This document shows, piece after piece, positions 2,147 to 43,820 of a stretch of 49,541 nt of DNA; the first letter of the stretch is position 1; every line of letters starts with the position of its first letter. The notes beneath the pieces are model-generated. The model was not told the origin of the DNA. It saw only the letters and a program-made list of their open reading frames with translations, and ran no database searches. A program made the position numbers and the translations under genes. The stretch lies in contig CAYMCV010000001.1 of assembly GCA_964389005.1 (NCBI GenBank), positions 4,957-54,497 of the forward strand, read 5' to 3'. The stretch comes from an uncultured Lachnospiraceae bacterium. Lineage in GTDB: Bacteria > Bacillota > Clostridia > Lachnospirales > Lachnospiraceae.

Positions 2147-3631
<1,485 letters not shown>

Positions 3632-3744
3632 TGAGGGTGCATGCCGAAAGGCATGCGGAAGAATAAACGCAGATGGCTATCGATAACTGAAATACAGTGA
3701 GCGAAGACGTCTGCGTTTTGTAGCAAAAGACAGGGGAGGCAGAG

Positions 3745-5259
3745 ATGAAATTAACTGATTTGGAGCGATACAATAATATTACGATTCAGTGTCATGATAA
3801 CCCGGATGCGGATGCTATTGCATCGGCGTTTGGATTGTATAAGTATTATACCTCCAAGAATAAACATGTTCGTATTATTTATAGCGGTCACAATCCGATA
3901 CAGAAAGCCAACTTGAAATTATTGATTGATAGGATTGAGATTCCGATTGAGTTTATCCCGGACTGCGATTGGCATGTGGAAGGTTTGTTGATTACGGTGG
4001 ATTGTCAATACGGGCAAGGAAATGTCAGCAAGATACCGGCGGATGCCGTTGCGGTCATAGATCATCACCAAATAGAGATTGAAGGCAATGATATGGTTGA
4101 AATTCAATCTTATCTGGGGAGCTGTTCGACACTTGTCTGGAAAATGCTGACAGAGGCAGGGTATGATATCGAACATGACAAAAAGCTCGGTACGGCATTG
4201 TATTACGGGCTGATGACAGACACTAATAGTTTCGCGGAACTTTATCATCCGTTGGATCGCGATTTACAAGACGAGATTATCTGTGATAAGACACTCATCA
4301 ACCTATTCTGCAATTCCAATCTTTCATTAAAAGAACTGGAGATTGCAGGAATTGCCTTAATTCGTTATATCTATAATGAGAAGTATCGTTATGCCATCAT
4401 TCATGCACAGCCCTGTGATCCAAATATCCTGGGACTTATCAGTGATTTGGTGTTGCAAGTGGATGCGATTGATGTATGTGCGGTATACAACGAAATGCCG
4501 GACGGATTTAAACTATCGGTGCGCAGTTGCGTGAAGGAAGTGCGGGCAAGCGAACTGGCGGTTTATCTAACGAAAGATATCGGCGCCGGTGGCGGACATG
4601 TGGATAAAGCCGGCGGTTTCATTGGCAAGAGGAAGTATGACAAAGCCTATCCGAAGGTTCATTCGGAAGCTTTTTTCGGTATGCGTTTAACGGAATACTT
4701 TGCATCTTCTGTTGTCATATATGCACAAACCTATGACCTTGACATGACGGGTATGAAAATGTACAAAAAGAAACGCCTCCTATTGGGCTTTGCGGATCCG
4801 TTGGATTTCCTTGAAAAAGGAACGCCCGTTACAATTCGTACATTGGAAGGCGACGTTGAAGTGAAGGCAGACGGAACGTTTTATGTGATGATTGGACTCA
4901 AGGGTGAGGTTTATCCGATTGATAAAGAGAAATTTTTGAAGACATATGATATATTGAAGGAAACCTATGATTTCGATGCAGAGTATCAACCCACCATCAG
5001 GAATTGTATTGACGGTGCTGCATGGGACTTGGTAAAATATGCCAAAACGTGCCGAGCACGCGGTGTTTCGTATATCTATGCACGAGAGTTGGATGTATGC
5101 GTGAAGATTTTTACGAAGTGGGACGAAGAAAAGTATATGATGGGCAAGCCCGGAGATTTTATTGCTTGCAGGAATGATGACAGACAAGATATTTATGTAG
5201 TGGAGCGAGATATCTTTTTTAAGACCTACGAAGAGGTTGAAGAAATTGCGAAAGAATAG
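3745..5259 (+). CDS. DHH/DHHA1-family phosphoesterase with ~170-aa C-terminal extension
   Basis: DHH motifs I-IV are present (HDNPDADAIASA, ITVDCQ, VIDHHQ, GLMTDT), as is the DHHA1 motif GAGGGH. At 504 aa it is about 170 aa longer than NrnA-type enzymes. Confidence 0.8.
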   Translation: MKLTDLERYNNITIQCHDNPDADAIASAFGLYKYYTSKNKHVRIIYSGHNPIQKANLKLLIDRIEIPIEFIPDCDWHVEGLLITVDCQYGQGNVSKIPADAVAVIDHHQIEIEGNDMVEIQSYLGSCSTLVWKMLTEAGYDIEHDKKLGTALYYGLMTDTNSFAELYHPLDRDLQDEIICDKTLINLFCNSNLSLKELEIAGIALIRYIYNEKYRYAIIHAQPCDPNILGLISDLVLQVDAIDVCAVYNEMPDGFKLSVRSCVKEVRASELAVYLTKDIGAGGGHVDKAGGFIGKRKYDKAYPKVHSEAFFGMRLTEYFASSVVIYAQTYDLDMTGMKMYKKKRLLLGFADPLDFLEKGTPVTIRTLEGDVEVKADGTFYVMIGLKGEVYPIDKEKFLKTYDILKETYDFDAEYQPTIRNCIDGAAWDLVKYAKTCRARGVSYIYARELDVCVKIFTKWDEEKYMMGKPGDFIACRNDDRQDIYVVERDIFFKTYEEVEEIAKE

Positions 5260-5278
5260 TTAGCATGGGGAAGCGGAT

Positions 5279-6343
5279 ATGTCGGAAGATATCATCAGAG
5301 AAGATTTGGAAGAACTGTTTCACAGGGAAATTGATTATACACGCTTTGACGGTAAGACCGTTTTGATTACGGGTGCATACGGAATGCTTGCATCGTATCT
5401 GGTTTATATGTTGGCTTTTTTGAATGAAAAAGGTCTGCATGTTCGCGTATTGGCACTTGTCAGGAGTAAGGCTAAATTCAATGCGAAATTTGGCGAGGAT
5501 TTTACCCAAAAATATCCCGTCGAAGTCATTGAGAGTGATTTGCATCAACCGATTGAAATTACCGAGCCGATTCATTTCATGATTCATGCGGCATCCATGG
5601 CGAGTCCGGATAAGTATGTCAAGTATCCCGTTGAAGTCATTGAGCCGAATATGATGGGAACCTATCATTTACTGTCATTGGCAAGACAGAAGAATATAGA
5701 GGGTTTTTTGTTATTTTCGACCGGCGATGTATATGGAGAGGTTGATGTACCGGAACGAATTACGGAGGAAACTTATGGAAGGCTCGATCCGTTGGACCCA
5801 CACAGTTGTTATGGAGAGAGCAAGCGAATGGCAGAGACATTGTGTTGTGCTTTTTATCGAGAATACGGTGTTCCTGCGGTAAGTGCAAGAATCAGCCATA
5901 CATATGGTCCGACGATGGACACAGAACATGATCCGCGCGTATTTGCATCCATGTTAAAGTGTGCGCTTGACGGGACAGACATCATCATGCAGAGTGACGG
6001 AAGTGCATATCGTGCATTCTGCTATCTTGCGGATGCAACTGCCGCATTTATGACACTGTTGCTAAAAGGCACCCCCGGGGAAGCATATAACGTCAGCAAT
6101 ACAAATGAATTCATGAGCATTCGAACATTTGCAGAAATTGTTGCCGGTTTGCGGGATGATACAAAATGCAAAGTTGTCTGTCGTGAGAGACCGAAAGACG
6201 ATAATTATCTTGAGAATCATAGGAACCGTGGCAATCTTTTAATCAACGACAAACTCCGAGAACTTGGGTGGGGCGCAAAATACACAACACGAGAAGGCAT
6301 GATGAGAACTATGACTTATCTGCAGAATGCGAGGCGGAAATGA
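5279..6343 (+). CDS. NAD-dependent epimerase/dehydratase (extended SDR, UDP-sugar decarboxylase/dehydratase-like)
   Basis: Rossmann motif VLITGAYGMLASY and catalytic YGESK (YxxxK). 354 aa. Confidence 0.85.
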   Translation: MSEDIIREDLEELFHREIDYTRFDGKTVLITGAYGMLASYLVYMLAFLNEKGLHVRVLALVRSKAKFNAKFGEDFTQKYPVEVIESDLHQPIEITEPIHFMIHAASMASPDKYVKYPVEVIEPNMMGTYHLLSLARQKNIEGFLLFSTGDVYGEVDVPERITEETYGRLDPLDPHSCYGESKRMAETLCCAFYREYGVPAVSARISHTYGPTMDTEHDPRVFASMLKCALDGTDIIMQSDGSAYRAFCYLADATAAFMTLLLKGTPGEAYNVSNTNEFMSIRTFAEIVAGLRDDTKCKVVCRERPKDDNYLENHRNRGNLLINDKLRELGWGAKYTTREGMMRTMTYLQNARRK

Positions 6344-7323
6344 AAACAATCAGTATCATGATACCATGCTATAATGAAGAAGAGAACGTTTCGCCGATTG
6401 CCGATGCAATCACGGCGTTGTTTGACAACGAATTGTCTTCTTACAATTATGAGTTGATTTTTATCGATAATGCGTCGACTGACCATACACGCGACATCTT
6501 ACGTATGATGTGTGAAAAGAACAAACGTATCAAAGCAATTTTTAACGTGCGTAATTTTGGGCAGAATAATTCGCCATATTATGGGTTATTGCAGACAACG
6601 GGCGACTGTACCGTATTGATGAGTTGTGATTTTCAGGATCCCGTGGAATTGATTCCGGAATTCGTACGCGAATGGGAGAACGGATATACACTGGTTACGG
6701 CAATTAAGAACGGAAGCAAGGAAAACAAGATTGTTTATTTATTTCGGAGCATGTACTACCGGATGTTTCGGAACATGAGCAATATTCAGCCGATTGAGCA
6801 CTTTACGGGGTTTGGATTGTATGACCGTGATTTTGTCAATATTTTACGGAAACTTGAAGACCCTACGCCATTCCTGCGCGGCACGGTTGCAGAATACGCT
6901 TACAATCGTAAAGAGGTATTTTTTGTGCAACCCAAGCGTAAAAACGGCAAAACACATAATAACTTCTTATCGCTTTACGATATTGCGATGCGTTCTTTTA
7001 CAAGTTATACCAAACTCGGAATCAGAACGATGTCAATCATCAGTTTTATTCTGGGGGTGTTGAGCATCATTGCTGCAATTGTTTACTTTATTCTGAAATT
7101 GCTTTTTTGGTACAATTACCCGACGGGAGCCGCACCGATTCTGCTTGCGGTATTGATTCTCGGTTGTTTTCAGTTGTTTTTTATCGGACTGCTCGGAGAG
7201 TATCTTTTTAACATGAATGAGCGAATTATCAACAGGCCGTTGGTGGTTGAAGAGGAGCGTATCAATTTCGATTCCGATGAGGTAATATGTCAAGAAAACC
7301 ATTCGGGAAAATCGAGCAGATAA
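6340..7323 (+). CDS. family-2 glycosyltransferase, polyprenyl-phosphate type (GtrB/ArnC/DPM1-like) with two C-terminal TM helices
   Basis: MKTISIMIPCYNEEENV, FIDNASTDHT and CDFQDP, with C-terminal TM helices. The ATG at 6340 overlaps the upstream stop (ATGA), so the ORF-track start at 6268 is an in-frame upstream extension. Confidence 0.85.
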   Translation: MKTISIMIPCYNEEENVSPIADAITALFDNELSSYNYELIFIDNASTDHTRDILRMMCEKNKRIKAIFNVRNFGQNNSPYYGLLQTTGDCTVLMSCDFQDPVELIPEFVREWENGYTLVTAIKNGSKENKIVYLFRSMYYRMFRNMSNIQPIEHFTGFGLYDRDFVNILRKLEDPTPFLRGTVAEYAYNRKEVFFVQPKRKNGKTHNNFLSLYDIAMRSFTSYTKLGIRTMSIISFILGVLSIIAAIVYFILKLLFWYNYPTGAAPILLAVLILGCFQLFFIGLLGEYLFNMNERIINRPLVVEEERINFDSDEVICQENHSGKSSR

Positions 7324-7336
7324 AAGAGAAAAAGGG

Positions 7337-7365
7337 TTGACGTTCGTAATTTCTCATGCTATACT
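7337..7365 (+). promoter_or_regulatory. sigma-A-type promoter for the BlaI-family gene
   Basis: TTGACG (7337-7342), 17-nt spacer, TATACT (7360-7365). Confidence 0.55.
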
Positions 7366-7405
7366 ACAAACACGAAACAGATATCGTATTATTTAGGAGG
7401 ACAAA

Positions 7406-7774
7406 ATGATGAAAGCACAACATGTAACGGAATGCGAATTGCTGGTTATGAAAAGTATCTGGTCAAAAGAAGACGATATGGCACTTCCTGCAATTGTAAG
7501 TCTTGTAAACGAGACTTATGGCAAGACATGGGCACCTCAGACTGTATCTACATTTTTAAAGAGACTCGTTACCAGAGGATTCTTGAGAATGTACCGTCAG
7601 GGAAGATCTTTTTACTATCATGAGATTATTTCCGAGAAGGAATACAGCCAGTTGGTAATCGTTGACAGCGTTGATTTTTGGTGGGGCGGTGATGCTGCCG
7701 AAATGTTAAAAGCATTTAACGAGCAGAGAAAACTTACCAAAGAAGAGAAAGCTGCGATTAAGAAGTTACTGTAG
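7406..7774 (+). CDS. BlaI/MecI/CopY-family winged-helix transcriptional repressor
   Basis: 122 aa. The sequence ECELLVMKSIWSKED...APQTVSTFLKRLVTRGFL...GRSFYY is the typical penicillinase-repressor fold signature. No C-terminal CxCxxxxCxC copper hook. Confidence 0.85.
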   Translation: MMKAQHVTECELLVMKSIWSKEDDMALPAIVSLVNETYGKTWAPQTVSTFLKRLVTRGFLRMYRQGRSFYYHEIISEKEYSQLVIVDSVDFWWGGDAAEMLKAFNEQRKLTKEEKAAIKKLL

Positions 7775-7805
7775 TTGTCGGAAGGGGTATTTGGAAGAAT
7801 ATAGC

Positions 7806-7857
7806 GAGGTCTGTGACGGTGAATTGTTATACAATTGATTGAGCAGACCTCGTTTTT
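7806..7857 (+). terminator. hairpin + T-tract after the BlaI-family gene, with a 15-bp palindrome at its tip
   Basis: Stem GAGGTCTG (7806-7813) pairs with CAGACCTC (7844-7851), followed by GTTTTT. The apical palindrome is AATTGT-TAT-ACAATT (7822-7836). Confidence 0.6.
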
Positions 7858-7876
7858 ACGTTGATGGAGAGTGAAC

Positions 7877-8347
7877 ATGCATGATGATACAATCGATGGG
7901 CGACAGGATATGAATGTAATAGAGGAAGAATTGAAAAAAGTAAGAGGGAGCGAGCCGGAGGTATCGGAGAATTGGTCGGACAGGCAAATGATTGATGAGG
8001 AACATCGGGAATTTGATATTATGTATCGCCTGATGAAAAAGATGAAACAGAATCTTTGCTTTATGGAAGACCTTTTATCTGAGGGAATGCAACGCCAGTA
8101 TCAACGTCGAAAGTGGAAATTGTATGAGGAGAGTTTCTGCGATTTTTATGCAGATGCGCTCAAAGAATATGAGGATGAAGAACTATCGCTGTCGGGAATT
8201 AAGAATGTTGTCTACAATAAAGAAGAAATCGGTAGTATCTTGACCAAATTGCAAGACTTTCGGAAGGAAATCGAAGCCATGGAACGGCACATGGAATACT
8301 TTGGGAACATAAAGCTATTGCAACCGGATGAAAAAGAAGATTTATAA
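7877..8347 (+). CDS. hypothetical acidic, helical cytoplasmic protein
   Basis: About 156 aa from the ATG at 7877, with GGAGAG 5 nt upstream. E/D/K-rich, no TM helix, no recognisable motif. AT-rich codon usage matches the downstream TIR gene. Confidence 0.55.
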   Translation: MHDDTIDGRQDMNVIEEELKKVRGSEPEVSENWSDRQMIDEEHREFDIMYRLMKKMKQNLCFMEDLLSEGMQRQYQRRKWKLYEESFCDFYADALKEYEDEELSLSGIKNVVYNKEEIGSILTKLQDFRKEIEAMERHMEYFGNIKLLQPDEKEDL

Positions 8348-8365
8348 TTCAATAGAGAAATATGC

Positions 8366-8394
8366 TTGACAAATGTGAAGCGGTTTGATATTAT
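8366..8394 (+). promoter_or_regulatory. sigma-A-type promoter for the TIR gene (a second candidate lies at 8429-8457)
   Basis: TTGACA (8366-8371), 17 nt, TATTAT (8389-8394). The alternative is TTGACG-17-TATCAT at 8429-8457. The track's TTG start at 8413 would place a promoter inside the ORF, so it is unlikely. Confidence 0.5.
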
Positions 8395-8502
8395 CGGATT
8401 GATAATAACAAATTGCTTTTTTGTTTTATTGACGATTTTAATCAGAATGGTTATCATAAGAATAGTGGTTGCGTTAAACGACACGCAGAAATGGAGAGTG
8501 TT

Positions 8503-11463
8503 ATGAATTTAAAAGAAACCAAATATGATGCATTTATCAGTTATCGACATTCAGAACTGGATAAGTATGTTGCAGAAACCTTACATAGACAATTGGAGAT
8601 GTTTCGTCTTCCCAAATCAATACTAAAACGACAGAAATTATCGCGTAAAAGGATTGAGCGGGTTTTTCGTGACAGAGACGAACTGCCGTTGGCAAGCAAT
8701 TTGGCAGAGCCGATTACCGAGGCATTAAAGAATTCGGATTTTCTGATTGTCATCTGCTCACCGCGTCTGCCGCAGTCGCAATGGTGCCGCAAGGAGATTG
8801 AGACATTTATTGCGATGCATGGAAGAGAGCGAGTATTTGCCGTGTTGGCGGAAGGAGAACCGTCGGAAGCGTTCCCGACGCAGTTGCAATATGAAGATAT
8901 AGAAGTGGTAAACGAGCGTGGAGAGAAAGAAATCGTTCGACGCATGATTGAGCCGTTGGCTGCGGATGTACGCGGGAAGAATCGTTCTGAGATCAAGAAG
9001 AAAATTAGGGAAGAAGTGTTGCGTCTTGCAGCACCGATGTTTGAATTAAATTATGATGATTTGAAACAACGTCATCGTGAGCAGCGTATGAAGAGAATTG
9101 TTGGTTTCACAGCTGCGATAGCGGGTGTGTTTTTGGCATTTGGTGCAGTCAGTACGACACTGGCATTGCGTATCAATCACCAATCCAAACTGATTGAACA
9201 ACAGAATGTCGAAATATCTGCGAAGAACGATGAAATAACCGCGCAAGCGGAGCAGATTGCGTTACAATATACGGAATCGCAGAAGGATTATGCCCGTGCA
9301 ATGGCTTCTGCATCGGAGCAAATGTTGGGTGACGGTAATTCTATGGCGGCTGTATATACGGCGATGAGTGTACTGCCGGAGAATTTGGAACAATCTGAGA
9401 TGCCGTATACACCGGAGGCAGAATATGCATTATCGAGAGCTTTGTATACCTATACGGCAGGCGGCAATTTCTTGCCTTATGATGTATATGATGCGGAATG
9501 CGAATTGAATTTTTACAAATTCAGTGAGGACGGGAGCAGAATGCTTTTGGCGGATAGCATTGACAGAGCAACAATATGGGATTTGGATACCCATGAAAAA
9601 GTGGCACAAATTCCGTGCAGTAGTTTGATTATGAGCAGCGACGCCGCATTCAAAGATAAGGATCATATTCTGTATAAAGGAAGCGGAGGCTTGATGGAGT
9701 ATGATATTGTCAACCAGACCGAAAGAATGATTTCTGAGAATTTCAGTGGAATTGCAGTATATCCGGAACACAATAAGTATATCGTGTGTGGATGGAATAT
9801 TGTTGAGTGCAGAGATTTGCAGAATGATGAAGTATTGTTTGAGATGGATTTGCCGGAGAACCACATACATGATGCAGAAATTATGTATATTACAGATGAT
9901 GGAGCATATATCATCATTGGAACAGAATCTGACGATAACTGTTATCTATCAGTATATCGCGGAGATAACGGTGAATTTGTCAAAATGATTCAGATTACGG
10001 AAGGGACAATAAAATCAGTTACAGAAGCCGCAGGGAAACTGTTTGTCATAACCAACGCTACAAAGAATTTTATCTCAATGGAAGGGTGGTGTACCTGTAT
10101 TGACTTAGCTTCTCTGGATGCAATATGGAGCAGAGTATGCATCGATAAGTATATCTACAAGGGGATTTATTGTGAGAGCGAAGGACAGGAGAGATTTATC
10201 ATTCAGACATATTACAATCTGATTTCGTTGGATGCAAATACCGGAGAAGAACTCTTTAGTCATCAAAGTGCAATTGAGATATTAAATATGTTTATGCCGG
10301 AAGATTCAGAGTCTGTTTTCTATATGTCGGAAGACGGATCGCTATTCTTCTACAATATTTTTACAGGCGTAAATGCGGATATGTCTTACTTTATAGAGTC
10401 ACCGAACAACCGATTGGGTGATTTCTATTGGAAAAAGGGTATAATCTTTCTGTTCCCAAGGAACTCAACAGATATCTTGGAATATCGCATCATGGAAAAC
10501 GGCAGTGCAGAGCCTATTGTAAAAATCGATTATGCAGCGCCAATGGTAATCAGTCCCCAGGGAACCACTTATTTGGAGAATCATACGAGGGACGGTTTGG
10601 CGACAAAGAGTATGCAGCTAAAAGATATCAATACACAGGAAGTGATTCAGAGTTTTGAAGCTCAGAAAGACGTGGCTGAATTTTGTTATGTCGGTGATGG
10701 GTCGGAAGCTGTAGCATTTATTGACAATTCCTGTAAGATATACAGTGTCAAAGACGGAAGTCTGATCAGAGAATTAAAGTTAGATGATGAAGATGATTAT
10801 TTCTCGAGCAGATTCAGTCCGAGCGGAAAAATGTTGATCATATCCAAGGGAGTTCAGAATGGTGTCAGAGCATACTCTTTGGAAACCGGAGAGATTTTGA
10901 TCAAAACACCGGATTGCGAGAAAGGTACCTCATTCAGTAATGTATATTTTGCTGAAACAGCGGATAAATTGGCTTGTAGAGATGAGGATAAAAACGAATT
11001 CAGATTCTATCATATTGGGGAGGAACAACCATATCAGACTGCAGATTTGAATCTTGGAAATGTCAACTCAATGACGTTTACAAGTGACGGGAAGTATTTT
11101 GTTACTTTGACCAAAGATTACAGCCTCGTATTCTATGACGCAGAGACTTTAGGAGAGGTTAAGACTTTTTATGACATACAAGCAGCTACGATTGACGGAA
11201 TTACGTATTATGAAGGAATTGGTCGATATATTGTTGATATAGCGAGCGGCGCTTATATGCTGGATGAGAATCTGAATATTGTTGCGGAGATTTGGAGTTA
11301 TTCGAGTTTCATTGTTGCCGAGAACAAGTTTGTTGTAAACGTTTCAAGAGAGGCAATGAAAATCCCATATTTTACGTATGAAGAATTACTCCAAAAAGGT
11401 GAGGAAAGAATTGAAGGATTTGAATTGTCAGAGAAGCTGAAAAAAGAGTATAATGTCAAGTAA
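8503..11463 (+). CDS. TIR domain - single TM helix - coiled coil - beta-propeller-like repeat protein
   Basis: Start taken at ATG 8503 (GGAG 6 nt upstream). The TIR signature is YDAFISYRHSELD...DFLIVICSPRLPQSQWCRKEIETF. The TM helix is IVGFTAAIAGVFLAFGAVSTTLAL (nt 9097-9168). At least 8 blade-like motifs follow, e.g. ATIWDLDTHEKV, VRAYSLETGEIL and LVFYDAETLGEV. Confidence 0.85.
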   Translation: MNLKETKYDAFISYRHSELDKYVAETLHRQLEMFRLPKSILKRQKLSRKRIERVFRDRDELPLASNLAEPITEALKNSDFLIVICSPRLPQSQWCRKEIETFIAMHGRERVFAVLAEGEPSEAFPTQLQYEDIEVVNERGEKEIVRRMIEPLAADVRGKNRSEIKKKIREEVLRLAAPMFELNYDDLKQRHREQRMKRIVGFTAAIAGVFLAFGAVSTTLALRINHQSKLIEQQNVEISAKNDEITAQAEQIALQYTESQKDYARAMASASEQMLGDGNSMAAVYTAMSVLPENLEQSEMPYTPEAEYALSRALYTYTAGGNFLPYDVYDAECELNFYKFSEDGSRMLLADSIDRATIWDLDTHEKVAQIPCSSLIMSSDAAFKDKDHILYKGSGGLMEYDIVNQTERMISENFSGIAVYPEHNKYIVCGWNIVECRDLQNDEVLFEMDLPENHIHDAEIMYITDDGAYIIIGTESDDNCYLSVYRGDNGEFVKMIQITEGTIKSVTEAAGKLFVITNATKNFISMEGWCTCIDLASLDAIWSRVCIDKYIYKGIYCESEGQERFIIQTYYNLISLDANTGEELFSHQSAIEILNMFMPEDSESVFYMSEDGSLFFYNIFTGVNADMSYFIESPNNRLGDFYWKKGIIFLFPRNSTDILEYRIMENGSAEPIVKIDYAAPMVISPQGTTYLENHTRDGLATKSMQLKDINTQEVIQSFEAQKDVAEFCYVGDGSEAVAFIDNSCKIYSVKDGSLIRELKLDDEDDYFSSRFSPSGKMLIISKGVQNGVRAYSLETGEILIKTPDCEKGTSFSNVYFAETADKLACRDEDKNEFRFYHIGEEQPYQTADLNLGNVNSMTFTSDGKYFVTLTKDYSLVFYDAETLGEVKTFYDIQAATIDGITYYEGIGRYIVDIASGAYMLDENLNIVAEIWSYSSFIVAENKFVVNVSREAMKIPYFTYEELLQKGEERIEGFELSEKLKKEYNVK
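11425..11454 (+). promoter_or_regulatory. candidate internal promoter for the flavoprotein/copA genes, embedded in the 3' end of the TIR CDS
   Basis: TTGTCA (11425-11430), 18-nt spacer, TATAAT (11449-11454). Confidence 0.4.
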
Positions 11464-11484
11464 GAAGTGAAAAGGAGCAAATGA

Positions 11485-12093
11485 ATGAAAGTTCTTTTAA
11501 TTAACGGAAGTCCGCACGAGAAGGGATGCACATATACCGCATTGGAAATCGTAGCACAACGATTGGGTGCACAAGGAGTCGAGACGGAAATCATTTGGAT
11601 TGGAAATCAACCGATTGGTGGGTGTATAGCTTGTGCAACTTGTAAAAAAACAGGAAAATGCATAATTGATGATTGTGTCAACGCAGTTTTGGAAAGACTG
11701 AATACAGCAGATGGTTTTGTATTCGGTGCACCGGTTCATTATGCGTCACCGACCGGCAACATGATTTCTTTCATGGATCGACTGTTTTATGCGGGAAGTG
11801 ATAAGATGCGTTATAAACCGGCGGCGGTTCTGACGTCGGCGAGACGTGCCGGTACCACAGCATCGTTGGATGTGCTTTCCAAGTATATTCAGTTTAATGA
11901 TATGCCGCTTGTTACCTCACGGTATTGGAACATGGTTTATGCTTCTAAGCCTGAGGATGTGCAAAAAGACAACGAAGGTATGCAGATTATGCGTGAGTTG
12001 GGTGACAATCTGGCGTGGATTTTGAAGTGTGTGGAACTCGGAGCACAAAACGGAATTACACATCCGATTCCGGAGGAAAAGATTTTTTCCTAA
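11485..12093 (+). CDS. iron-sulfur flavoprotein-like NAD(P)H-dependent FMN reductase (flavodoxin-fold)
   Basis: MKVLLINGSPHEKGCT N-terminus and a compact Cys motif CIACATCKKTGKC (CX2CX2CX5C) as in Isf-type proteins. 202 aa. Confidence 0.8.
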   Translation: MKVLLINGSPHEKGCTYTALEIVAQRLGAQGVETEIIWIGNQPIGGCIACATCKKTGKCIIDDCVNAVLERLNTADGFVFGAPVHYASPTGNMISFMDRLFYAGSDKMRYKPAAVLTSARRAGTTASLDVLSKYIQFNDMPLVTSRYWNMVYASKPEDVQKDNEGMQIMRELGDNLAWILKCVELGAQNGITHPIPEEKIFS

Positions 12094-12117
12094 CGGCGGA
12101 GTGTCAGGAGGCAATCA

Positions 12118-14469
12118 ATGAAAAAAACACAGAAATTTCAAGTACGCGGTATGGGATGTGCGGCATGTGTGGCTGCGGTTGAGAAGCATACGCGCGCACT
12201 AAAAGGAGTCGAGGTTTCGGAGGTAAATTTACTGACGAACAGTATGTTGGTCACATACGATACGAATTTGTGTAATACGGAGTTACTAATCAAAGTGGTC
12301 GAAGATGCAGGCTTTACTGCAGAGGCCGAGGATGATGGGGATGATGAGAATCCGGAAGCCGGTATGCGGCATCGGAAAGAGCGTCGAGAAGAAATCAAAG
12401 CCAAAGATAAACGAAGCGGCGTACGCATGAGAATCCGGCTGGTTTTGTCGATACTCTTTTGGGTGCCGCTGATGTTTCTTGCAATGTATCATATGTTCGG
12501 AGCCATCATACCGCAACGCATCATCAGTGCATTGGATGCACGTTTTCAAGGAACGCAGAATGCTTATTTTTATGCATTTTCGCAGTTCCTTCTTTTGCTT
12601 CCGATACTGGTATTGAATTATCGCTATTTTACCGGCGGATTTCGGGCGGTTTTGAAAGGAAGACCGAATATGGATACGTTGATTGCCATCGGAAGTACTG
12701 CGGCAACAGGCTACGGAATATATGCGACAATTGTAATGTATCTTGGTATGCGTTCAGGAAATGCAGTGCTTGCGGAGCAATATAGCCATGAGTTGTATTT
12801 CGAGACAGCCGGAACGATACTTACGTTGATTACGGTAGGGAAGTATTTGGAGAGCGTCAGCAAAGGAAAAACAAAAGCGGCGTTGGAAAAATTGATGGAT
12901 CTTGCCCCACAGAAGGCAATTGTAGTAAGAAATGGGAAAGAAACAGAAATCCCAACAGACGAAGTGATGGTTGGGGATATTTTTATCCTAAAACCGGGTA
13001 GTCGTGTACCGGTTGACGGAATTGTGACAGAAGGACACAGTAGTGTCGATGAGTCTGCAATTACGGGAGAGAGCATGCCTGCGGAGAAAACAGTCGGGAG
13101 TAACGTTGTTTCCGCAACCGTGAATAAAGACGGTGTTTTGCGTTGTGAGGCTGTAAAAGTAGGAGATGATACAACACTTCATAAAATTGTGGAATTGGTG
13201 GAGCAGGCGGGAATGAAGAAGGCACCGATTGCAGGTCTTGCAGACCGTGTTGCGGGTGTGTTTGTACCTGTGGTTATGGGAATCGCGGTGGTATCCATGG
13301 CGATATGGCTGATCTGCGGAGCATCTTTTTCATTTGCGATGTCCATTGGTATCGCTGTTTTGGTCATTTCCTGTCCCTGCGCACTGGGGCTTGCAACCCC
13401 GGTTGCAATTATGGTCGGAACCGGCATTGGTGCGGGCAAAGGGATATTGATTAAATCAGGAGAAAGCCTACAGGCAGCCGGTGAGGTGGATACGGTGGTA
13501 TTCGACAAAACCGGAACGCTGACCAAGGGAGAACCTCAGGTAAAAGAAGTCACCGTATGGAGTACACAGTATTCCAAAACCGAAGTATTGCGGTTGGGAG
13601 CGATATTGGAAGAAGGAAGCGAGCATCCGCTGGCAAAAGCGGTTATCAAACGTGCAGAAGAAATGCGCGAAAAAGAACTGACGCAAATACATGACAAAGC
13701 GAAAGTGGAGTCATTTACGGCGATTCCAGGAAAAGGAATCAAGGCGGTTTATCGCGCGGAGGCATTCATTATCGGAAATCGTGCTATGATGGACGAACAT
13801 GAAATTGAGATATCCGATGAGCAGGAAATGCGGATTCGGGCGTCAGAGGAGAAATCATATACACCGTTGCTTATGGCAAAAGAACGGGAATTGGTTGGTA
13901 TGTTTTCCATTGCGGATACGTTGAAAGAGACCTCAAAAGAAGCGGTTGCGGAATTGAAACATCATGGAATCAAAACCGTGATGTTAACCGGGGATTCCAA
14001 ATTGGTTGCGAATCGTATTGGCGATGAGGTCGGTATTGAACAGATTTTTTCGGAAGTTCTTCCTTGGGAAAAGGAACAATGTATTCGAGAATTGACCGAG
14101 AGCGGAAGCAAAGTTGCAATGGTTGGAGACGGAATCAATGACGCTCCGCCGTTGGTTGCGGCACATGTCGGGATTGCCATTGGTGCAGGAACGGATATCG
14201 CGATTGAGAGTGCAGATATTGTGTTGATGCACAGCGATCCGAAGGATGTTTATCGTGCAATCGCATTGAGTCGCGATGTGATGCGGAATATCAAGCAGAA
14301 TCTGTTTTGGGCATTTTTTTACAACAGTATCGGAATTCCGCTTGCAGCAGGTGCGTTGTATCCGCTGTTTGGAATTCGTATGAATCCGATGTTTGGGGCG
14401 GCAGCCATGAGCTTAAGCAGCCTTTTTGTGGTTGGAAATGCATTACGGCTTCGATTGAAAAAAAGATAA
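12118..14469 (+). CDS. copA: copper-translocating P1B-type ATPase
   Basis: N-terminal HMA domain with GMGCAAC; CPC in TM6 (SCPCALGLATP); DKTGTLT; GDGINDAP; the Cu(I)-type YN (FFYNSIG) and MSLSS motifs. Confidence 0.95.
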   Translation: MKKTQKFQVRGMGCAACVAAVEKHTRALKGVEVSEVNLLTNSMLVTYDTNLCNTELLIKVVEDAGFTAEAEDDGDDENPEAGMRHRKERREEIKAKDKRSGVRMRIRLVLSILFWVPLMFLAMYHMFGAIIPQRIISALDARFQGTQNAYFYAFSQFLLLLPILVLNYRYFTGGFRAVLKGRPNMDTLIAIGSTAATGYGIYATIVMYLGMRSGNAVLAEQYSHELYFETAGTILTLITVGKYLESVSKGKTKAALEKLMDLAPQKAIVVRNGKETEIPTDEVMVGDIFILKPGSRVPVDGIVTEGHSSVDESAITGESMPAEKTVGSNVVSATVNKDGVLRCEAVKVGDDTTLHKIVELVEQAGMKKAPIAGLADRVAGVFVPVVMGIAVVSMAIWLICGASFSFAMSIGIAVLVISCPCALGLATPVAIMVGTGIGAGKGILIKSGESLQAAGEVDTVVFDKTGTLTKGEPQVKEVTVWSTQYSKTEVLRLGAILEEGSEHPLAKAVIKRAEEMREKELTQIHDKAKVESFTAIPGKGIKAVYRAEAFIIGNRAMMDEHEIEISDEQEMRIRASEEKSYTPLLMAKERELVGMFSIADTLKETSKEAVAELKHHGIKTVMLTGDSKLVANRIGDEVGIEQIFSEVLPWEKEQCIRELTESGSKVAMVGDGINDAPPLVAAHVGIAIGAGTDIAIESADIVLMHSDPKDVYRAIALSRDVMRNIKQNLFWAFFYNSIGIPLAAGALYPLFGIRMNPMFGAAAMSLSSLFVVGNALRLRLKKR

Positions 14470-28671: not shown

Positions 28672-29646
28672 CTAAATATGCGACAAGGAGAGACCGAACG
28701 GACTGAGTTTATCACGATGTTCGGTTTTGCTATTGTTTCGATATTGCGAGGGAGTACAGCCAAAGTATTGTTTAAACAACTTGTTGTAATAACTTGCATT
28801 GTTAAAACCGACGGAATAAGCGAGATCCGAGATGGAGGTGAAGGAGCGGTCATTCTTCAGTATCATTTCGGCAGATTGCAGTATCCGATATTTCATCAGG
28901 TATTCAATGGGTGTCATATCAACCGCACGTTTGAAACAACGGCAACATTCACTTTTGCTGATGTGAATGGACTCTGCGATATCTTCAAGCATAATCGGTT
29001 CGCTGTAATGTGTCTCGATGAAAGAAATGGCATCTTTGATACGGATTTCATCGGGAGAGAGTTGTTTGACTTTGGTTCGGTGAACAACCGGCTCCAAATT
29101 GGTTTTTTTGAGCAGATGCAACCAAAGCTGACAAAGATAACTCTTGGTCATCAGTTCAAAACCGAATTCTTTGGTCAGATTCGTGGAGAAAATGTCTTCG
29201 ATGTAGGCAAGCATACCACGATTCCACATATCGCCGCTTCTAAAGATGCAATAGCGCATTTGAGAATCTTCCAAAATCGGTTTCACATAGTTGGTGTGTG
29301 TTTGAGAGCCGGGATTCGGAAACAAAAATCGTGGATGAAAAATCAAAGAGAGAATGACGCATTTTCCTTCTTCACAGGTGATGGAGTGCCGCACATTACT
29401 ATTGATAAAAATAGCCTGTCCCGGATACATGGTCACAGTTTTATCACCAATCTTGAACATCGCATGTCCTTCACGTATCAGGTTGATTTCAATCTCCTCA
29501 TGCCAATGCCACCGCACATACCCCATGTACATTTTATCCGGTTCCACATAGTAGACACCGACGGGATAGTCAGGATTACTGTGTTCAACAATTTCTTCAA
29601 TATCGGTATAAGAGGCACTTTTTCTGAGTTCATTTGCTTCTTTCAT
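28672..29646 (-). CDS. AraC-family transcriptional regulator with N-terminal cupin sensor
   Basis: C-terminal double HTH (IAESIHISKSECCRCFK ... DLAYSVGFNNASYYNKLFKQYFGCTPSQYR). The N-terminal region reads as a cupin beta-barrel. Confidence 0.9.
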   Translation of the reverse strand: MKEANELRKSASYTDIEEIVEHSNPDYPVGVYYVEPDKMYMGYVRWHWHEEIEINLIREGHAMFKIGDKTVTMYPGQAIFINSNVRHSITCEEGKCVILSLIFHPRFLFPNPGSQTHTNYVKPILEDSQMRYCIFRSGDMWNRGMLAYIEDIFSTNLTKEFGFELMTKSYLCQLWLHLLKKTNLEPVVHRTKVKQLSPDEIRIKDAISFIETHYSEPIMLEDIAESIHISKSECCRCFKRAVDMTPIEYLMKYRILQSAEMILKNDRSFTSISDLAYSVGFNNASYYNKLFKQYFGCTPSQYRNNSKTEHRDKLSPFGLSLSHI

Positions 29647-29715
29647 CCATTTTCTCCTTGTATTGCCTTATATCACTTCTCTATCATTTTACGCAGTTTA
29701 TGTATGAAAAATCAA

Positions 29716-29744
29716 GAATAAAAAACAAAATAGAGAAGATACTA
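29716..29744 (+). promoter_or_regulatory. forespore sigma-G/F-like promoter candidate for spoVA genes
   Basis: GAATA (29716-29720), 17 nt, GATACTA (29738-29744). This compares with the sigma-G consensus GHATR-N17/18-CATXHTA. Confidence 0.35.
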
Positions 29745-43747: not shown

Positions 43748-43820
43748 GCGATAGTGGCGTAGTTGGTAACGCGCGACCTTGCCAAGGTCGAGACCGCGGG
43801 TTCGAGCCCCGTCTATCGCT
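43748..43820 (+). tRNA. tRNA-Gly (anticodon GCC), CCA not encoded
   Basis: Hand-folded cloverleaf. Acceptor GCGATAG/CTATCGC, D-stem GCGT/ACGC, anticodon stem CGACC/GGTCG with loop TTGCCAA, T-arm GCGGG-TTCGAGC-CCCGT, discriminator T. Confidence 0.92.

Follow-up and report, generated by a model that had tools for sequence, protein, structure and literature searches.

What would a bacterium do with a TIR domain on the inner side of its membrane that is joined, through one helix, to a large propeller on the outer side? The question is raised by a 49,541-nucleotide stretch of DNA from an uncultured Lachnospiraceae bacterium (assembly GCA_964389005.1, contig CAYMCV010000001.1, positions 4,957 to 54,497 of the forward strand; the whole stretch is called the window below), in which the gene at 8503 to 11463 encodes a protein with an N-terminal TIR domain, a single transmembrane helix, and a tandem propeller ectodomain. 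We give an even chance to the reading that this is a receptor-type membrane TIR protein, which would turn an extracytoplasmic event into a signal derived from nicotinamide adenine dinucleotide (NAD). The evidence that carries this reading is the invariance of a presumed catalytic Glu, a predicted topology that recurs in nearly all aligned relatives, an ectodomain that appears to diverge far faster than the cytoplasmic module, and the recurrence of genes for nucleotide-handling proteins next to the TIR gene in other genomes. A first-pass annotation of the same DNA had compared the protein to a Toll-like receptor, taken it for a single-gene system without partner genes, and been unable to place its architecture in any described system. 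On the last point we agree, as full-text searches of the literature found no description of a bacterial TIR-transmembrane-propeller protein.

A TIR domain and a double propeller on one membrane anchor

The gene and the parts of its product are arranged in the window as follows, with the basis of each assignment in brackets.

8503 to 11463, plus strand: coding sequence of the TIR-transmembrane-tandem-propeller protein, 986 amino acids (translation without stops)
8524 to 9042, plus strand: predicted cytoplasmic TIR domain, residues 8-180 (Pfam, AlphaFold2 fold with a predicted local distance difference test score, pLDDT, of about 90, and a PDB profile search)
8794 to 8796, plus strand: codon of Glu98, the presumed catalytic Glu of a W94-x-x-x-E98 motif (family and PDB alignments)
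9052 to 9096, plus strand: basic juxtamembrane helix, residues 184-198, YDDLKQRHREQRMKR (conserved; joins the transmembrane helix in the model)
9097 to 9168, plus strand: single transmembrane helix, a predicted type II anchor, residues 199-222 (hydropathy scan)
9169 to 9462, plus strand: predicted extracytoplasmic helical stalk, residues 223-320 (AlphaFold2 helices 220-276, 280-289, and 304-314)
9469 to 11367, plus strand: modelled tandem WD40-type double beta-propeller, residues 323-955, hypervariable (AlphaFold2, Foldseek)
11377 to 11451, plus strand: two C-terminal helices, residues 959-983 (AlphaFold2 model)

The peptides quoted at first pass are all found in this translation, and the positions then given for the Glu98 codon and the transmembrane helix are correct. 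Two metagenome contigs encode a protein identical to that of the window, with its neighbors unchanged.

The TIR assignment holds: three Pfam models exceed their curated cut-offs (TIR_2, 48.0 bits against 28; ThsB_TIR, 27.6 against 21.2; TIR, 25.5 against 21.3), and the PDB profile search matched plant AtTIR (3jrn), TLR2, BtpA/TcpB, and, as an entry in the hit table, AbTir (7uwg). In PDB sequence and profile searches, the W94-C-R-K-E98 helix aligns with WCLDEL of AtTIR, and E98 shares its column with the Glu of QWPAREL in Brucella BtpA/TcpB (4lzp, 4lqc, 4c7m) and with a Glu of the TIR chain 7uxr. Both W94 and E98 are invariant in all 118 aligned relatives, as are F11-I12-S13-Y14, F55-R56-D57, E150-P-L-A-A154, and R157. 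The Glu that had been singled out earlier therefore does occupy the column of the AtTIR and BtpA/TcpB Glu throughout the alignment, and the domain is presumed to be of the catalytic, NAD+-cleaving type.

A single membrane crossing, N-terminus inside and C-terminus outside, had also been proposed, and this is what the relatives suggest. Only one hydrophobic peak occurs in the entire 986-residue protein (Kyte-Doolittle 2.1), and exactly one in each of the 118 relatives. The transmembrane helix is flanked by 6 Lys or Arg residues within 15 residues on its N-terminal side and by 2 on its C-terminal side, and this bias recurs in 116 of the 118 relatives (mean 4.7 against 1.9). Residues on both sides of the membrane are invariant as well, namely D185, Q189, R190, and E193 in the juxtamembrane helix and I224 and Q227 at the start of the stalk. 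An AlphaFold2 model of the window protein, built on the 118-sequence family alignment (mean pLDDT 90.3, predicted template modelling score 0.75), has a continuous helix from residue 184 through the membrane to residue 276, with low confidence only at the transmembrane stretch 203-227, as expected because the model contains no membrane. The conserved juxtamembrane helix and stalk would fit a role in transmembrane coupling, beyond that of a mere anchor.

The ectodomain had been described as one large beta-propeller. Pfam models of the WD40 type match residues ~357-507 and ~700-895, the AlphaFold2 model has about 60 beta-strands between residues 323 and 955, and Foldseek against PDB returned the tandem WD40 double propellers Utp21 (4nsx, E 1.5e-23), Pwp2, COPI, and Apaf-1 (3sfz), with Apaf-1 having the highest query-normalised template modelling score (0.35) among the matches listed. 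The propeller fold is supported on all three counts, and since the structures matched are tandem double propellers, the ectodomain is best modelled as two propellers, with ~14-15 blades in total.

A search with the full-length protein brought up at least 3880 proteins; among the matches listed, full-length homologs measure ~945-1050 amino acids at 30-39% identity and, where named, are called only "TIR domain-containing protein" and come from metagenome-assembled genomes of Lachnospiraceae or Clostridiales. A scan of one genome per species gave at least 573 loci, nearly all of them in Lachnospiraceae. An exhaustive HMMER search with the TIR-juxtamembrane-transmembrane module as the query (residues 1-230) gave 2302 clusters (50% identity, E<=1e-30), and these fall into two length classes, ~790-880 and ~940-1060 amino acids, which points to two ectodomain size classes on one common cytoplasmic module. 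Across the family, relatives share 67% identity with the window protein in the cytoplasmic module and 42% in the transmembrane helix; the figure for the stalk is 40%, and the two propellers reach only 17% and 19%. By this measure, the sensor and output parts evolve differently, with divergence much more rapid in the propellers than elsewhere in the protein.

We define the family by a YDAFISYRH...SxWCxxE...EGEP..FP...EPLAAD.RG...YDDLKQRHRE module followed by one transmembrane helix and a propeller ectodomain of 600-800 amino acids, and the window protein has all three. Fusobacterium vincentii (1018 amino acids) and Butyrivibrio fibrisolvens (814 amino acids) have proteins with this architecture and these motifs. 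A proteobacterial relative, from Sinorhizobium, keeps the TIR-juxtamembrane-transmembrane arrangement, but with TPR repeats; on plasmid pK101b of Sinorhizobium sp. K101 (L090:4463-8304), the gene for this 918-amino-acid protein overlaps a PLD-like (NgoFVII-type) gene, and the overlap hints at a defence-like context in this distant branch. In one Lachnospiraceae metagenome-assembled genome (L054:120-4300), two open reading frames (ORFs) of the TIR family stand in tandem; either a duplication into paralogs or a gene split by a frameshift could explain this.

A large stalked ectodomain would be suited to spanning a Gram-positive wall, and the protein could on that account be a structural or adhesive surface protein, with propellers that bind wall, glycans, or cells and a TIR domain that serves as a non-catalytic oligomerisation or scaffold domain. 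Animal receptor TIRs do act as scaffolds, TLR2 aligns well with the family profile and has a Glu in the same column, and the housekeeping genomic context described below would suit such a protein. Against this stand the invariance of W94, E98, and a set of pocket-region residues in the 118 relatives and the recurrent linkage of the family to nucleotide-handling partners (DHH, RyR), not to wall or adhesion genes, and we think this explanation improbable. The source records of the relatives are gut, rumen, and faecal samples, and pathogen Tcp proteins carry similar WxxxE TIRs, so that a host-directed mimic of the Tcp type, interfering with Toll-like receptor signalling in the gut epithelium, might also be considered. 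The protein has no signal peptide, its TIR domain is predicted to face the cytoplasm from a type II anchor in 116 of 118 relatives and would therefore not be exposed to a host, and no secretion-system context was seen; we give this mimicry next to no credence.

Recurrent partner genes and a proposed pathway

For the context survey, ORFs were called and clustered in 80 of the at least 573 homologous loci and in the window. The sole neighbor that recurs across contexts is a DHH-family protein of ~510 amino acids, whose gene lies directly upstream of the TIR gene and co-oriented with it in 45 of the 81 loci, with -55 to +158 bp between the two (at L083, the called genes overlap by 4 bp). These 45 pairs have 30 different upstream genes and 21 different downstream genes, in 32 context combinations. 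By tblastn, the DHH gene is present in 52 of the 74 loci with enough upstream sequence. The window has a member of the same cluster (c1), with four genes between it and the TIR gene.

3745 to 5259, plus strand: DHH/DHHA1 phosphodiesterase, 504 amino acids, with an extra C-terminal beta-rich domain (Pfam, AlphaFold2, clustering)
5279 to 8347, plus strand: four-gene block between the DHH and TIR genes (separates the partners)

The block encodes an NAD-dependent sugar epimerase/dehydratase, a GT2 glycosyltransferase, a CopY/BlaI-type repressor, and an acidic 158-amino-acid protein; none of these genes is found between the partners in the 45 loci where DHH and TIR adjoin. The distance from DHH to TIR in the window is 3154 bp, and in a rough neighbor-joining tree, the window protein falls in a clade with frequent loss of the DHH linkage. 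The window TIR gene is split off from its DHH partner by this 3.1-kb block and appears to have its own promoter. The idea of a single-gene system without partners is not supported, in view of the 45 adjacent pairs and of the ortholog 3.1 kb upstream in the window itself, and also of some relatives, described below, whose operons include genes for RyR-domain membrane proteins or K+ channels.

Pfam recognizes the DHH domain at 58 bits and gives a weak DHHA1 match. For the AlphaFold2 model of the DHH protein (pLDDT 85.9), the structural matches are the catalytic domains of GdpP, Thermotoga TM1595, Borrelia DhhP, NrnA, and Rv2837c, which are phosphodiesterases for cyclic di-AMP, pApA, pAp, and nanoRNA. 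Its C-terminal domain (~180 amino acids, residues ~320-504, positions 4700-5259) has no sequence relative in Pfam or PDB. This domain matches phage families phrog_419 (E 1e-11), phrog_36774, and phrog_4502, which have no assigned function, and in a fold search, small viral proteins match part of the DHH model; the domain could be a module for ligand binding that is shared with phages.

The second kind of partner is found in only some lineages. A gene for a ~600-amino-acid RyR-type membrane protein starts 4 bp past the TIR stop codon in Fusobacterium, 320 bp after the TIR gene in Butyrivibrio, and, on the opposite strand, ~100 bp downstream of it at L043. In these RyR-transmembrane proteins, N-terminal transmembrane helices are followed by a Rossmann-like middle part and, at the C-terminus, by an EHxRW...HxCLxPxxEL motif. 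The copy at L043 matches ryanodine-receptor RyR repeats in PDB at E 2.3e-16 and the bacterial RyR structures 6uag and 3nrt at ~2e-7, and the RyR match of the Butyrivibrio neighbor, weak alone (Pfam E 0.15), becomes convincing only via the L043 homolog and a three-way alignment. The RyR-transmembrane family is small (67 clusters), and its multi-pass RyR-domain proteins adjoin TIR genes in 6 of the 7 loci examined; 3 of the 4 further members fetched with their context are next to a TIR gene, and the member at L092 has no TIR gene nearby. At L094, the neighbor is a STAND-type TIR-NB-ARC-TPR gene, together with vWA/MoxR genes. The remaining loci are as follows.

L091 (Butyrivibrio sp. AE3004), 2910-7833: TIR-WD40 gene, then an RyR-transmembrane gene 23 bp on
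L093, 4851-11619: RyR-transmembrane gene, then a K+ channel gene, then a TIR-transmembrane-propeller gene, with gaps of 10-13 bp
L089:6974-11860, L088:6995-11574, and L043: other loci with a TIR gene and a gene for an RyR-domain membrane protein

The K+ channel at L093 has a TVGYGD filter and a C-terminal RyR domain. A recent preprint (May 2026, PMC13232231) describes phage RyR-domain proteins (RyDEP) that cleave or sequester the TIR products 2'cADPR and 3'cADPR, variants of cyclic ADP-ribose (cADPR), and notes that they are homologous to R12, a domain found in animal ryanodine receptors. Operons of the L093 type could be a bacterial pathway from a TIR protein to an RyR-domain channel, for which we found no publication; in full-text searches of the literature, neither a TIR-DHH link nor a chromosomal TIR-RyR link was reported.

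If these parts work together, then an extracytoplasmic ligand, probably a variable one given how poorly the propellers are conserved across the family, would bind or cluster the propellers and bring together the TIR domains on the cytoplasmic side. Candidate triggers would be phage, a neighboring cell, a host factor, or an envelope cue. TIR NADases need self-association for NAD+ cleavage, and clustering or rearrangement of the ectodomain would therefore switch on an NAD+ glycohydrolase or cyclase. The output would be a nucleotide signal derived from ADP-ribose, probably with some local consumption of NAD+. In this scheme, the GdpP/NrnA-like DHH/DHHA1 phosphodiesterase is proposed to degrade or process the nucleotide made by the TIR domain, and RyR-domain membrane proteins, the K+ channel among them, are proposed to read it in some lineages. 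Because both recurrent partners handle nucleotides, we favor a signal-producing TIR over pure NAD+ depletion. The fuller version of the scheme is an undescribed outside-in pathway with a double-propeller receptor, a cADPR-like messenger made by the TIR domain, RyR K+ channels gated by it in some lineages, and clearance by a dedicated DHH enzyme; this we regard as possible though doubtful.

Several points weigh against these proposals. The TIR domain of animal TLR2, which is non-catalytic, also aligns a Glu in the E98 column, and E98, though necessary for NADase activity, does not by its conservation prove it. The placement of the TIR domain in the cytoplasm and of the propellers outside it is a prediction from the positive-inside rule. 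The DHH gene is absent within 8 kb in 22 of 74 loci, including those of the window protein's closest relatives; it is more conserved than the TIR gene (55-61% identity) and occurs without it, with GlnRS directly after DHH at L086 and DHH alone at L085. Since it is more conserved and is found without TIR, DHH has the look of a conserved gene with which the TIR gene is coupled in most cases but not in all, and the linkage could in part be inherited synteny beside a housekeeping nanoRNase. We know of no DHH enzyme that acts on cADPR-type molecules. There is no RyR-domain gene in the window, and the RyR linkage is seen in only ~5 loci. The strongest mechanistic clues, which are the DHH operons and the RyR/K+ channel operons, come from relatives and not from the window.

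The character of the DHH gene also brings in a nucleic-acid-directed explanation, in which the TIR domain would decap NAD-capped RNA or synthesize 2',3'-cyclic nucleotide monophosphates, the NrnA-like DHH protein would clear short oligonucleotides or pAp, and the membrane propeller would merely localise or regulate a housekeeping activity. Nearest to the DHH protein in fold are nanoRNases and pApA phosphodiesterases, the gene resembles a conserved core gene that also occurs without TIR, and bacterial TIR proteins are reported to strip nicotinamide from NAD-capped RNA (PMC10937652). This explanation leaves the hypervariable ectodomain and the RyR/K+ channel partners unaccounted for, and no RNA-binding element is evident in the TIR-transmembrane-propeller protein by Pfam or AlphaFold2; we consider it improbable as well.

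Genomic context and a possible role in defence

The TIR neighborhoods are housekeeping in character and partly syntenic, with a frequent order of IMPDH, GGDEF/EAL, IMP-cyclohydrolase-like, AICARFT-like, DHH, TIR, GlnRS, DUF2225, and GntR/aminotransferase genes, and the window itself contains IMPDH, ClpB, RarA, Rho, PrfA, GlnA, PurA, PtsI, and SpoVA. The first-pass statement that no recognized defence partner is present in the window is upheld by PADLOC, which found no SIR2, ThsA, CBASS, or STAND partner among the 40 window proteins. Among the 122 non-redundant neighbors of relatives (up to 2 genes away), PADLOC gave scattered, generic-looking matches and no defence island. No copy of the family was found on phages in IMG/VR or INPHARED. 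Twelve PLSDB records matched, in which family members occur only on a 243-kb Butyrivibrio replicon and in a mislabelled 2.1-Mb Fusobacterium record, the match being confined to the TIR region in the remaining records. A mobile-element origin was accordingly set aside, there being no phage matches and only a single member on what is probably a true secondary replicon, and a place in a defence island, as the first pass had suggested checking for, finds no support in this context of IMPDH, purine, and GlnRS genes.

The 40 window proteins do match 12 PADLOC models, among them PDC-M37B (E 7e-43), DolB (9e-33, two proteins), mad3 (2e-30), and mad2 (7e-21). Our guess is that these are generic similarities of the AAA, HTH, and methylase type in housekeeping paralogs, because the other window genes are all of housekeeping types. 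Assignment of the TIR protein itself to a known defence system was tried and rejected: PADLOC gave nothing beyond weak matches at the level of the TIR domain (PDC-S66, 28 bits; SAVED_TIR, 27 bits), and the NCBIfam matches to Thoeris III ThcB4, FxsC, and retron-TIR are all sub-threshold.

Two loci have other genes of note beside the TIR gene. At L013, a gene for a 292-amino-acid Nudix-fold protein (5042-5920) ends 30 bp ahead of the TIR gene; from our own reading of its sequence, this protein may resemble NrtR, the ADP-ribose-responsive regulator of NAD metabolism, and it counts as a further hint for the receptor-type reading. At L003, a gene for an HD-domain hydrolase follows the TIR gene.

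In an anti-phage abortive infection system, the propeller would detect phage adsorption or a breach of the envelope, the TIR domain would deplete NAD+ or trigger a K+ channel, and the TIR gene would be self-sufficient where no partner is nearby. Such a role would be in keeping with a catalytic-type TIR that has weak similarity to ThsB-like, PDC-S66, and SAVED-TIR models, with a sensor as hypervariable as an arms race would predict, with the RyR-transmembrane gene beside a STAND-type TIR-NB-ARC-TPR gene and vWA/MoxR genes at L094, with the PLD-like gene beside the Sinorhizobium TIR-transmembrane-TPR relative, and with the 22 of 74 loci that have no DHH partner. It is hard to reconcile with the often syntenic housekeeping neighborhoods (IMPDH, purine genes, DHH, TIR, GlnRS), with the scattered PADLOC matches among the 122 neighbors, and with the near absence of the family from the mobile-element collections (none in IMG/VR and INPHARED, one in PLSDB on a probably true secondary replicon). 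The TIR module is kept at ~67% identity to the window protein, near the 55-61% of DHH, whereas genes for defence are typically patchy, and no defence system is known to sense outside the membrane. Abortive infection accordingly has, in our estimate, a small but real chance of being the function.

The first pass had credited the window gene with its own promoter, and the expression signals ahead of it are these.

8366 to 8394, plus strand: sigma-70-type promoter-like site, TTGACA-17-TATTAT with a TG-extended -10 (11 of 12 matches)
8493 to 8496, plus strand: GGAG ribosome-binding site (6 nt ahead of the ATG, read directly)

The promoter-like site lies within the 155-bp gap ahead of the TIR gene and is the top-scoring site across 3500-12300, and to that extent the claim survives; as a class, such sites are not enriched over shuffled sequence in this region, and the case for a promoter at 8366-8394 is suggestive only. 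Rfam found no regulatory RNA upstream of the TIR gene, its sole match in the window being a tRNA gene at 43748-43820 (67 bits). Downstream, an FMN-reductase gene begins 21 bp past the TIR stop codon, and no terminator-like site was found between the two. The TIR gene is flanked by a CopY/TcrY-type repressor gene (7406-7774) and a gene for a CopA-like heavy-metal P-type ATPase (12118-14469), between which lie the 158-amino-acid ORF, the TIR gene, and the FMN-reductase gene; the TIR gene and its neighbors may interrupt a cop-like locus. Elsewhere in the window, long ORFs overlap on opposite strands (28678-29721 on the plus strand and 28672-29646 on the minus strand), and the plus-strand translation resembles antisense junk; the true gene is probably the 324-amino-acid minus-strand ORF at 28672-29646.

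Comparison with known systems

All bacterial TIR systems known to us sense intracellular events. If the TIR protein of the window is instead wired to an extracytoplasmic sensor, bacteria would couple surface recognition to NAD-derived signalling, and the family would be a prokaryotic counterpart of both the layout of Toll-like receptors and the axis between cADPR and the ryanodine receptor. Sensing of this kind would be physiological or ecological, beyond phage defence, and would take place in abundant gut commensals: this is an unstudied family with thousands of sequence clusters, found across at least 573 species-level genomes in a bacterial family that is dominant in the gut. The fast-evolving propellers could mark a surface interaction, with phage, host, or neighboring cells, that shapes the ecology of gut communities. 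The DHH and RyR links provide testable hypotheses on how a signal would be terminated and read, and the RyR link bears on the old question of whether the RyR repeat is an ancestral sensor of cADPR-type ligands.

The receptor kinases of the PknD type and the CdaA/GdpP pairs would offer precedents for the two halves of such a scheme. PknD-type kinases combine a cytoplasmic enzyme, one transmembrane helix, and a propeller sensor on the outside; in the CdaA/GdpP pairs, a membrane enzyme makes a second messenger that a DHH/DHHA1 phosphodiesterase removes. The output here differs in being a TIR domain, not a kinase or a DAC/GGDEF domain, and the messenger, if there is one, would be derived from NAD+. 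The comparison with RyDEP and the R12 domain is partial too: the neighbors of the family carry a bona fide RyR domain (E 2.3e-16 at L043), but here it occurs as a fusion with bacterial membrane proteins, a TVGYGD K+ channel among them, and as the chromosomal partner of a TIR gene.

Catalytic TIR NADases such as SARM1, AbTir, BtpA/TcpB, and the plant TIRs share the WxxxE motif with the window protein, and its Glu column is common to AtTIR, BtpA/TcpB, and 7uxr. These known enzymes are soluble or secreted proteins that have other regulatory parts (ARM-SAM, coiled-coil, or NB-LRR), and none is a single-pass receptor with a propeller. The STAND, NLR, and Apaf-like TIR proteins come closer in their repeats, as they too join a TIR domain to tandem WD40 propellers and Apaf-1 has the template modelling score of 0.35 noted above, but the window protein has no NB-ARC, NACHT, or other NTPase domain, and its transmembrane helix and helical stalk separate the TIR domain from repeats that would face outward. 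Nor does the protein belong with the TIR effectors of CBASS, Pycsar, and type III CRISPR systems (TIR-SAVED, TIR-STING, and Cat1): by Pfam, the window protein lacks SAVED, STING, and CARF domains, its PADLOC SAVED_TIR match (27 bits) covers only the TIR region at residues 10-132, and there is no CD-NTase in the window.

With Thoeris, the likeness lies in the chemistry. The window TIR has the catalytic-type Glu and a Pfam ThsB_TIR match above the cut-off, the likely signal would be derived from ADP-ribose and read by a separate protein, and the RyR-domain partners of relatives would take the effector role. On the other hand, no ThsA of either kind (SIR2/SLOG or Macro/transmembrane) occurs among the 40 window proteins or the 122 neighbors of relatives, which places the protein outside Thoeris; the score with NCBIfam ThcB4 is 22.9 where the cut-off is 220, and the family has a membrane-tethered TIR, a predicted extracytoplasmic sensor, a syntenic housekeeping context, and DHH as its main partner.

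With animal Toll-like and IL-1 receptors, the likeness lies in the layout, which combines a repeat ectodomain, one transmembrane helix, and a TIR domain in the cytoplasm, and ligand-induced clustering would be plausible in both. The Toll-like logic proposed at first pass can be kept as an analogy of layout only, since the orientation is inverted and the sensor is made of WD40 and not of leucine-rich repeats (LRRs): Toll-like receptors are type I proteins with a C-terminal TIR domain and an LRR or Ig ectodomain, whereas the family has an N-terminal TIR domain, a type II anchor, and WD40 propellers. The TIR domain here also looks catalytic, not like an adaptor scaffold, and there are no adaptor or kinase partners. 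The shared layout is most simply explained by convergence, and the family, which would resemble the Toll-like receptors in layout only, may work like Thoeris in its chemistry.

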